Source: Candidatus Thorarchaeota archaeon (GTDB taxonomy: Archaea; Asgardarchaeota; Thorarchaeia; Thorarchaeales; Thorarchaeaceae). From it: a stretch of DNA of 24,685 bases. The translations under genes and the position numbers were made by a program. Positions within the stretch are counted from its first letter, which is position 1. Every line of letters begins with the position of its first letter. The notes under the pieces are model-generated. The model did no database searches. It worked only from the letters and a program-made list of their open reading frames with translations, and was not told where the DNA came from. Location of the stretch: the NCBI GenBank assembly GCA_048884785.1, contig JBHLQM010000056.1, positions 1-24,685 on the forward strand. The letters are read 5' to 3'. This document shows, one piece after another, positions 585 to 11,806 of the stretch.

Positions 585-692
585 GCCTCGGTAGCTAAGT
601 GGTCTAAGGCGCCTGACTTGTATGTCAGGAGACCCTTGTCCTCTGATCAAGATATCAGGAGACCGCGAGTTCAAATCTCGCCCGGGGCTCCA
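585..692 (+). tRNA. tRNA-Thr(UGU) with 31-nt intron at 37/38 (623-653)
   Basis: Acceptor GCCTCGG/CCGGGGC, U73, encoded CCA. Anticodon stem CCTGA/TCAGG with TGT at 619-621. T arm GCGAG-TTCAAAT-CTCGC. Strict BHB: CTTG(617-620)/CAAG(648-651), bulges TAT and ATA. Confidence 0.93.
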
Positions 693-6110: not shown

Positions 6111-6260
6111 TGGTGCGGGAGGTGGGATATTCCAGACAGATGATAATCATATGCCTATTCGAACCCACGGACCCCTACGGGAGCGGATTTCTTGTCGAAT
6201 GACCCCATACTTCATACGATCTTAAGTCCGCCGCTTTTGACCAGGCTTAGCAACTCCCGC
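6111..6260 (-). tRNA. tRNA-Leu(UAA) with two introns: 37/38 (6220-6189, 32 nt) and 59/60 (6157-6128, 30 nt)
   Basis: GCGGGAG/CTCCCGC, A73, CCA. GCGGA-CT-TAA-G[intron]A-TCCGC. Long variable arm. GTGGG-TTCGAA[intron]T-CCCAC. Both introns form relaxed BHBs with one mismatch in the central helix. Confidence 0.9.
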
Positions 6261-6388: not shown

Positions 6389-6498
6389 TGGTGGGCCGCG
6401 CCGGATTTGAACCAGCGACCTTCGATGCAAACGAGCATGAATCTCATTTGAATTCTCGGTGTAAACGAGACATCATAGCCGGGCTAGACTAGCGGCCC
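6389..6498 (-). tRNA. tRNA-Val(UAC) with 32-nt variable-loop intron at ~44/45 (6452-6421)
   Basis: GGGCCGC/GCGGCCC, A73, CCA. Intact anticodon arm TCTCG-TT-TAC-AC-CGAGA. Removing the insert restores variable loop AGGTC before GCTGG-TTCAAAT-CCGGC. Confidence 0.9.
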
Positions 6499-6630: not shown

Positions 6631-7296
6631 CTATCCTCTTTGCCCAATAAAATGAAATTCCTTAACGGAAGAATCAAGCTCAACAATCTGAGATTCAGAA
6701 TAATAGTCTGATAAGTTTGAAACGATATTAGTATCCAATTTACCCTTGAACGCCGCTATTAGTCTACCACCATGTTTCAAAACTGGTGTGAATCTTTCAA
6801 TCAGCAACAGCGTCCCATTGGGATCGGTTGTTACATCAATGAGTAATACATCGAGTTCTCCTGCATTACAGATTGCATATGGGTCTATCGAGAATGCATC
6901 TCCAGCAATCAATGTAAACAGGCCTGTAAAGCTTTTTTCCAATTCGCGAAGTGTAGGAATAAATGTTTCAGATATCTCGACTCCTACTACTTTTGCTCCT
7001 TTTTCCAATAAGTAATAGAGAAACCCTCCTGCAGAGCTTCCAACATCAAGCGCAAAAGTTCCCGGTTTCACAAGACGTCCTTGAACCCTATCATCGAGCT
7101 GCTTGAGCTTACCATACCCCCGAGGCAAATCTCGTGCCAGGCTCGAAACGAGTATCTTCTCCTTGCCGGTCACATGATAAGATGGTTTCATCGGTCTTCC
7201 ATCTACAGTAACAAGTCCCTCCTTTATTGCTCTCTTGGCTGCTTGTCTAGAAGTGAAAATATTCTCTTCAACAAGCCAGACATCAAGTCTTGGCAT
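6631..7296 (-). CDS. S4-domain/FtsJ-type (TlyA-like) RNA methyltransferase
   Basis: N-terminal S4 motif (RLDVWLV...SRQAAKRAIKEGLVTVDG), SAM motif LDVGSSAGGF, and 'IDV'. Start ATG 7296 overlaps the upstream gene. Confidence 0.85.
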   Translation of the reverse strand: MPRLDVWLVEENIFTSRQAAKRAIKEGLVTVDGRPMKPSYHVTGKEKILVSSLARDLPRGYGKLKQLDDRVQGRLVKPGTFALDVGSSAGGFLYYLLEKGAKVVGVEISETFIPTLRELEKSFTGLFTLIAGDAFSIDPYAICNAGELDVLLIDVTTDPNGTLLLIERFTPVLKHGGRLIAAFKGKLDTNIVSNLSDYYSESQIVELDSSVKEFHFIGQRG

Positions 7297-8053
7297 TTCG
7301 TTTTTCCTCAATTTCTTCTGGGATGAATAGATGCATAGGCACACCTCGCATCTTCGGTCCTATAGCTGCAAGTATTCCGGTTGCACGGGTACCTCTCTTA
7401 CACTGAAGTGAGAACTCAAACCGTCCCAGCTGTTCTATCAGATAGATATCTCCTTCATGTCCTGACTTTTGCAGTGTGCTCTCTATCATCTGCTGGTTGG
7501 CGCCAAATACAAGAAGTCGTTCGTGGTCATCCTTCAACCAGTTTTCAAATCTCTCCAAAAAGCTTGGTGCAAGCTCGGCTCCAATTTGCTCATCATCAAG
7601 ATTTACGCTTGTCACTCTTATTTCGAGAGGTAAATTGTCAACTAAGACATGAGTTTCGGCTATCTTTCTAAGAGATTTTCCTCTCATAACGAGCTGTTCT
7701 CGAAGTTGGTGCAATGGAATAAGAGCATCAATTCTTGGTTCCTGTAGACCAACATCCACATACAAACCATACCCAACTTTTCCTACATCCACAAGTTGCC
7801 CACGATAGATGCTTTCCGGGAGAATATCATACATCTCGGGCACTCTCCCATATTCTTGTGCAAGAAGATTGACAACAAACTCCTCATCGGATCCTGAAAC
7901 AGAAAGAAGAAGATGTCCTCTTTTGTCCGTGTCAAGAGCGACCTTCTCAAGGTCGAGCTCCTCTAGCATCCCCTCTATCTCAGACTGAATGATTCCTAGA
8001 AGCCTGTTTTGATATTGTCCATAAACTCGGGGAAGTAATGCTATACGCTGCAA
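7283..8053 (-). CDS. DUF2110 family protein
   Basis: 'G.LVDVGKVGYGLYVDVG', 'LVDNLPLEI' and 'CKRGTRATGILAAIG' motifs; located in the usual archaeal position downstream of tfe. Confidence 0.75.
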   Translation of the reverse strand: MQRIALLPRVYGQYQNRLLGIIQSEIEGMLEELDLEKVALDTDKRGHLLLSVSGSDEEFVVNLLAQEYGRVPEMYDILPESIYRGQLVDVGKVGYGLYVDVGLQEPRIDALIPLHQLREQLVMRGKSLRKIAETHVLVDNLPLEIRVTSVNLDDEQIGAELAPSFLERFENWLKDDHERLLVFGANQQMIESTLQKSGHEGDIYLIEQLGRFEFSLQCKRGTRATGILAAIGPKMRGVPMHLFIPEEIEEKRNAKT

Positions 8054-11158: not shown

Positions 11159-11806
11159 ATGTTGTCTGATCAAGAGAGGAACTCCGAGTTTCCTTTGGAA
11201 TCATCTGATGAAGAACTCGATGAATTTGTTGATGAAGAACCCGAGGAAGAGGAGGAACCGTCAAGTGCAATTTTCAGAGATGAGAAGGGCTACGTTGGAA
11301 AAGACGATGCTGATAGAATATCCCAACAGGGATTCTATGGATCTCGACTTGATGATGGCACATTACAACTTGAGCCTGTGGAATTGCTACATTTACTAGA
11401 GCGAAAGAGAATTACATTGGCAAACGCAGCAGGTGAAACAATTGGTTCCGCACATATTATCAAGGAGCTACTTGCCAAAGACCCCGATCTCTGGATACGT
11501 TATCTTGTGTTTCGTGATTTACGAAGTAGGGGATATGCAGTACGCCAAGGATTTGGGAGTGGAATTGGATTTCGAGTATACAGTCGTGGAGAACGGCCTG
11601 GATCGTCAACTGCAAGCCAGCTAATCTATGTGCTAAAAGAAGGAGTCCCCATATCACTACAGGAACTTGATGCAGTAACAGAAACCGCCTTATCGGCACG
11701 CAAGTTTCTCTTGTTTGCATTGGTAGACCAAAATGGAGAAGTAAATTATTACCGAGTTGCCCAAGCAACACTTCGTGACCTTGGAGGGAATACTAATAAT
11801 GAATGA
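11159..11806 (+). CDS. endA: tRNA-intron (splicing) endonuclease subunit, probably non-catalytic beta type
   Basis: [23 protein letters not shown]...G..FRVY and [18 protein letters not shown]. The catalytic His position is Thr. Confidence 0.88.

Follow-up and report, generated by a model that had tools for sequence, protein, structure and literature searches.

A conserved 44/45 intron in a Thorarchaeota tRNA-Val(UAC) gene and its likeness to the host anticodon arm, best explained by splice-signal constraints and chance

The tRNA-Val(UAC) gene examined here carries a 32-nt intron in its variable loop, and this insert is probably an ordinary, protein-spliced archaeal tRNA intron with a relaxed BHB at the non-canonical site 44/45. 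Its resemblance to the anticodon arm of the same tRNA is best explained by the constraints of the splice signal together with chance, and not by construction of the intron from pieces of tRNA. An origin of introns from their own exons is not supported, either for this intron or as a general rule in the family. The gene lies in the window, the whole stretch of 24,685 nt that was analyzed, which makes up contig C56 in a metagenome-assembled genome of 3.6 Mb (G000).

A search with the Rfam tRNA model returned a match on the minus strand (6392 to 6498, 45.8 bits) with a single long insert past position 44, in a gene that ARAGORN did not call. Removal of the insert from the sequence yielded a full cloverleaf with a score of 49, identical to intronless orthologues. 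The precursor is approximately 110 nt long and has its CCA encoded. A 3' CCA is encoded in 30 of 30 well-scoring G000 tRNA genes. Intronless orthologues, in which the two exons abut, read ...CGAGAAGGTC... or ...CGAGAAGATC..., and a contig from a public run links 6420 straight to 6453, omitting exactly 32 nt. The intronless orthologues and this contig therefore delimit the intron as 6421 to 6452, between positions 44 and 45 (Table 1), and the variable-loop location given in the initial annotation was confirmed by both the Rfam insert and the intronless orthologues. Because its flanks differ from the window, the contig, which derives from a metatranscriptome, was assigned to an intronless relative and not to spliced RNA; it is uninformative on splicing here. 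At most 5% of the sampled words were present in the RNA libraries, and other RNA runs gave no cover of the locus.

Table 1. Positions in the window of the tRNA-Val(UAC) gene, the parts of its intron, and the EndA-family domain
Feature	Position	Strand	Basis
tRNA-Val(UAC) gene with encoded CCA	6389..6498	(-)	Rfam RF00005, 45.8 bits, model 1-71; cloverleaf parse
Anticodon TAC; encoded CCA	6463-6461; 6389-6391	(-)	
5' exon, tRNA positions 1-44, containing the anticodon-arm 14-mer (6469-6456)	6453..6498	(-)	Rfam and intronless orthologues/contig
32-nt intron, variable loop, between positions 44 and 45	6421..6452	(-)	Same site in 18 orthologues
3' exon, positions 45-73	6392..6420	(-)	Rfam alignment, intronless orthologues, cloverleaf parse
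BHB central helix, exon strand C39 G40 A41 G42 (anticodon stem 3' strand)	6455..6458	(-)	Pairs with 6423-6426
BHB central helix, intron strand ATCG (NUCG in orthologues)	6423..6426	(-)	Orthologue comparison
5' bulge A43 A44 U; predicted cut after A44 (6453/6452)	6452..6454	(-)	Cut rule gives the intronless sequence
3' bulge A A G45; predicted cut 6421/6420	6420..6422	(-)	Intronless orthologues and contig
Intron hairpin 5' strand CAAATGAG; the preceding TT plus this strand form the "T-loop copy"	6443..6450	(-)	8 bp with 6428-6435
Intron hairpin 3' strand CTCGTTTG, the first 8 letters of the "second anticodon arm"	6428..6435	(-)	8-bp pairing, covariation
Intron hairpin loop ATTCATG	6436..6442	(-)	Fold
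EndA-family domain, one of two genomic paralogues	11489..11749	(+)	PF01974, 71 bits, 260-aa open frame

The tRNA gene adjoins an S4 + FtsJ methyltransferase gene (window 6631 to 7344, minus strand). The G000 methyltransferase is approximately 55% identical to its same-genus copies, the glycosidase on the opposite side of the locus is 82% identical, and divergence across the locus is uneven. Approximately 130 nt downstream of the tRNA-Val lies tRNA-Leu(UAA) (window 6176 to 6260, minus strand), which scored just 15.8 bits with the Rfam tRNA model and apparently contains two introns, one of 32 nt at 37/38 and one of 30 nt at ~59/60 in the T loop.

Read in the tRNA sense, the intron consists of T, T, CAAATGAG, the loop ATTCATG, CTCGTTTG, C, ATCG, and AA. 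The segments CAAAUGAG and CUCGUUUG pair as an 8-bp intron hairpin, while ATCG pairs with exon residues C39-G40-A41 and adds a G-A mismatch. The bulges A43-A44-U and A-A-G45 flank this central helix, and cleavage of both bulges past their second base yields GAGAA/GGUC, which is the intronless sequence. Compared with the 4-bp helix of a strict BHB, the G000 central helix contains three Watson-Crick pairs plus the G-A, so the motif is a relaxed one. The inner helix of 8 bp covaries among orthologues, and the outer helix contains just two invariant pairs, C38-G46 and A37-U47. A single BHB topology was found in all 23 catalogued introns of G000, each composed of 1 nt, a hairpin of 7 to 10 bp, 4 nt, and 2 nt; the 4-nt element is complementary to exon positions -6 to -3, and the last-but-one base is nearly always A.

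The MFE fold of the precursor contains no BHB and retains the anticodon stem, and the BHB conformer is predicted to be 7.4 kcal/mol less stable. The initial annotation had proposed that the BHB needs the anticodon stem to open; conservation of the CGAG (39-42)/ATCG pairing among orthologues backs this proposal and suggests a conformational switch in the precursor. In such a switch, exon C39-G40-A41(-G42) would quit the anticodon stem and pair with intron (A)UCG, creating a central helix of 3 to 4 bp with the bulges AA/U and AA/G at its sides. The 8-bp hairpin of the intron would serve as the inner helix, and C38-G46 and A37-U47 as the outer helix. EndA is predicted to cut both bulges past their second base; ligation of the exons by RtcB would give ...GAGAA-GGUC.... 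Judging from domain matches, G000 encodes the putative splicing endonuclease and ligase: two EndA-family genes matching PF01974, one in the window and its paralogue on contig C35, and RtcB as one PF01139 match.

A DNA search of 60 relatives disclosed 17 full-length matches with 79-93% identity, as well as genes with abutting exons. The intron occupies the same site in 18 orthologues of the family, in syntenic loci beside the same methyltransferase gene. The central pairs C-G, G-C, and A-U are invariant in all 17 distinct orthologous sequences, and the fourth pair is G-C in 6, G-U in 4, and G-A in 7 of them. The two bulges are conserved as well, as is NUCG-A on the intron side. Across the nine gap-free orthologues, the proposed BHB fold left 82.5% of cells paired, versus 18-48% with slid partners, and five of the eight hairpin pairs have changed on both sides among orthologues. 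RNAalifold, run on a MAFFT alignment, recovered the anticodon stem alone and missed the BHB because the diverged hairpins were misaligned.

Synteny with the S4/FtsJ methyltransferase at this locus extends to 28 relatives. In a tree of the methyltransferase protein, the 44/45 intron appears on both sides of the midpoint root with intronless genes interspersed; one genome (G009) is intronless amid near-identical intron-bearing sisters, and three same-genus genomes have a T-loop intron in the Val gene instead of the 44/45 intron. The 44/45 intron is old and frequently lost. Among same-genus Val(UAC) genes, the intron is at 44/45 in G004 and in the T loop at 56/57 in G001, G002, and G005, and the loci L018, L022, L023, and L026 have near-identical exons with a differing intron site. 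The loss in G009 is seen relative to the near-identical G024 and G033. Turnover of the Val(UAC) intron has occurred over a very short timescale, and the locus documents it within one genus and family, where the same gene may have its intron at 44/45, have it in the T loop, or lack one altogether.

The initial annotation had described an intron 14-mer, CTCGTTTGCATCGA (6435-6422), as a degenerate second anticodon arm. Its likeness to exon CTCGTTTACACCGA (6469-6456) is real, with 12 of 14 letters identical in the tRNA sense, and the letters before the two copies were verified as GATGT for the exon and TCATG for the intron. As an arm, it does not hold up: the 14-mer lacks a hairpin of its own and comprises the 3' strand of the intron hairpin and the strand pairing with exon C39-G42, so that in the proposed BHB it would supply the hairpin 3' strand and one strand of the central helix, followed by the first A of the bulge. 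The segment CTCGTTTGCATC (window 6435-6424) also matches the anticodon arm of tRNA-Ala(UGC), located at G000 contig C1:138792-138866, at 11 of 12 letters, including the whole 7-nt loop.

A T-loop copy had been noted as well. The intron does start with the T-loop letters TTCAAAT (6452-6446), but the heptamer is generic, being the T loop in 25 of the 36 tRNAs of G000. Within the intron it spans one bulge base and one mismatch before running into the complementary strand of the hairpin. Pairing with GTTTG dictates CAAA, four of the seven letters, so the heptamer does not count as independent evidence. Among 72 introns, 2 contained a T-loop heptamer (0.24 expected, P 0.027), too few to interpret.

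Comparison of the orthologues revealed that the likeness decays away from G000. Identity in the 14-mer register is 12 of 14 in G000, followed by 10, 10, and 11, and then 5-9 in the farther orthologues. The best own-exon score is 10 in G000 and 6, 7, 8, 7, 6, 7, 6, 6, 4, 6, 8, 6, 5, 6, 4, and 7 in the orthologues, with a shuffle mean of ~5.7-5.9. The orthologous 14-mers have in common the CUC of the hairpin top, a single T, and the CGA of the BHB; TTTGCA and TTCAAAT are confined to G000 and one orthologue (G006). Columns 7 and 9 of the 14-mer hold non-exon letters in most orthologues, the distant ones included; read on the tree, these letters therefore indicate that the exon-like states of G000 are derived. 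On this sequence comparison, we infer that the likeness is derived and not ancestral.

The best ungapped own-exon score of the Val intron, 10, has P = 0.007 against dinucleotide shuffles, P = 0.0065-0.011 under a null preserving the hairpin and BHB letters, and P = 0.023 against ~90 real unrelated tRNA exons. The likeness is nominally unusual for one intron, and ~0.15-0.5 such matches are expected among the 23 introns of G000. These were obtained with a home-made cloverleaf + BHB parser, which found 36 tRNA genes, 19 of them interrupted, in a partial catalogue; the parser places boundaries to within ~2 nt and under-samples type II and multi-intron genes, and 16 + 14 of its calls were removed as doubtful. 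Of the 23, the only two that stand out are the Val(UAC) and Thr(UGU) introns, which both lie in the window. Genome-wide, the mean score was 5.78 for introns against their own exons, 5.62 against other exons, and 5.65 for shuffles. Antisense own-exon likeness served as a positive control in this set and was too weak a signal to pick up 4-bp helices.

We extended the comparison to a census of interrupted tRNA genes sampled from ten further genera in the family, which provided 104 clean independent introns. For own-exon likeness, 2 introns reached p<=0.01 (1.0 expected) and 3 reached p<=0.05 (5.2 expected), and the mean own-exon score was 5.87 versus 5.72 for shuffles; there was no excess. With the likeness derived among the orthologues and no excess in the census, the proposal that the intron was built from host-tRNA fragments found no support.

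The Thr(UGU) gene (window 585 to 689, plus strand) displays a pattern of likeness that differs from that of Val. The start of its intron, UGUCAGG(A), mimics the start of the 3' exon (A-UCAGGA); UGUCAGG(A) is conserved and not covarying in ~10 orthologues (L128-L139), and the two BHB strands have nearly the same sequence. A D-loop intron present in most Thr(UGU) orthologues is absent in G000.

Other G000 tRNA genes were recorded in the course of the survey. Two distinct tRNA-Val(CAC) genes are located on contigs C9 and C119, one with a 53/54 intron and the other with introns at 37/38 and 59/60, and two tRNA-His genes are located on contigs C3 and C83; these duplicates are compatible with a bin for which 5% contamination or a mixture of strains is reported. 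Isolated tRNA 3' fragments (T arm + acceptor + CCA) occur on contigs C14 (three copies), C9, and C25, with GTGTGTTCAAATCACAC...CACCA repeated three times within ~2 kb, and look like attachment-site remnants of integrated elements.

Direct copying of the exon could have generated the likeness in more than one way. A head-to-tail duplication of the anticodon-arm region (~32-34 nt) would have created the intron and left the 14-mer as a decayed copy, an origin that we consider very unlikely; we attach just as little weight to its corollary, in which the 5' half of the intron later evolved to pair with the 14-mer. The spacing of the copies (34 nt) is near the intron length (32 nt), each copy ends close to a cut site, and on a tandem-duplication signature, defined as diagonals offset by one intron length (+-3), the Val intron scores 10 (P ~0.0012) and the Thr(UGU) intron 10 (P ~0.0006) under constraint-aware nulls. 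Nevertheless, the intron is old, as its presence on both sides of the family tree indicates, and of the 5-9 letters that distant orthologues match in register, three are the BHB-constrained CGA. The ancestral 3' end of the intron was likely CUCGA, the complement of exon CGAG rather than a copy. No exon likeness is seen in the younger T-loop intron that Val genes of the same genus carry (p 0.55-1.0), and tandem diagonals in the 104 introns average 4.43 versus 4.33 (P 0.17), with one intron at >=8 (1.3 expected) and a maximum of 8. The end registers, comparing the intron end with the exon-1 end and the intron start with the exon-2 start, revealed nothing in the other G000 introns.

The occurrence of two score-10 cases in 23 introns is unexpected, being beyond chance expectation if their selection by the initial annotation is ignored; both the tandem statistic and the genome were picked after the Val and Thr cases had been seen. 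It could be a consequence of later copying into an old intron, with template switching or gene conversion drawing the 3' half toward the exon in the G000 lineage and affecting Thr(UGU) as well, although we judge this quite unlikely. By inspection, the differences between the G000 clade and its outgroups (columns 4, 7, and 9) are all toward exon letters. All three differences of the Thr(UGU) intron from the introns of its closest relatives are exon-like, and its exon and intron both read GACC where the exon of the relatives reads GATC. However, three chance-matching substitutions have P ~0.04, the genome that holds both score-10 cases was chosen because of them, and nothing comparable was seen in the remaining 21 G000 introns. 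That, in the G000 lineage, short copying of the adjoining exon at a spacing of one intron length initially seeded both the Val(UAC) and the Thr(UGU) intron, or rewrote parts of them, is in our estimate unlikely; if true, local duplication or templated copying would be a rare but real DNA-level route for the birth or renewal of Asgard tRNA introns. A function of the exon-like segment as a decoy or folding switch for the anticodon stem, or as a second anticodon cassette (UUUGCAU, UGC) used through alternative splicing, appears extremely improbable: the GAG/CUC hairpin top is conserved in most orthologues and the loop is identical to that of tRNA-Ala(UGC), but UUUGCAU is found only in G000 and G006, with unrelated letters in the other orthologues, a normal tRNA-Ala(UGC) gene is already present, and an alternative BHB was not found. 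The cassette was rejected as a candidate since it is not conserved and its product would be defective, having, by reading of the sequence, a C-A stem mismatch, a 3-nt variable loop, and no G3-U70. Under the preferred reading of splice-signal constraint plus chance, the anticodon-arm likeness would consist of conserved structural letters (CUC at the hairpin top and UCGA at the BHB) together with two or three lineage-specific substitutions that happened to match the exon.

To the unsolved question of how archaeal tRNA genes acquire enzyme-spliced introns, an own-exon origin would be a new answer. Tested within one Asgard family, on 23 + 104 introns and on the 18 orthologues of the Val intron, the idea failed, and this limits introns derived from their own exon to no more than a few per cent of those now present. 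Heavily interrupted tRNA genes have been described in Asgard archaea, where the arrival of the introns was called the central open problem, no general arrival route was found, and own-exon origin was not among the tests (bioRxiv 10.64898/2026.10.13.758758). Our data resemble that description in the Asgard host, the many intron positions, the boundary BHB, repeated gain and loss among close relatives, and the lack of any sign of copying between tRNA genes. They differ in that the Thorarchaeota family analyzed here is not named in its main text, an own-exon test was run here and was negative, and the burden is lower, with 19 of 36 genes interrupted by 23 introns in our partial catalogue.

In Caldiarchaeum, a tRNA-Thr gained an intron via recombination with a mobile element whose attP carried the intron (PMC3293823). 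Like that route, the copying scenarios considered here operate on DNA and leave tRNA sequence behind as direct repeats. Unlike that case, the Val repeat spans 14 nt within a single gene, synteny of the locus is retained throughout the family, and the ORFs covered by a general scan within ~2 kb of the Val gene are ordinary genes. A further comparison is with the non-canonical BHB introns of Thermoproteales and their transposition (Sugahara 2008 and Fujishima 2010, summarised in PMC4090602 and PMC3293823). Transposed intron families are the hallmark of that order (PMC4090602, PMC3293823), whereas G000 has no intron families across tRNA types: 0 of 245 pairs between types reach 70% identity, and the best match of the Val intron among introns anywhere is 64%. 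In agreement with the Crenarchaeota/Thermoproteales introns, the Val intron is short, lies outside 37/38 in the V-arm region, and has a relaxed BHB in a genome with two EndA paralogues.
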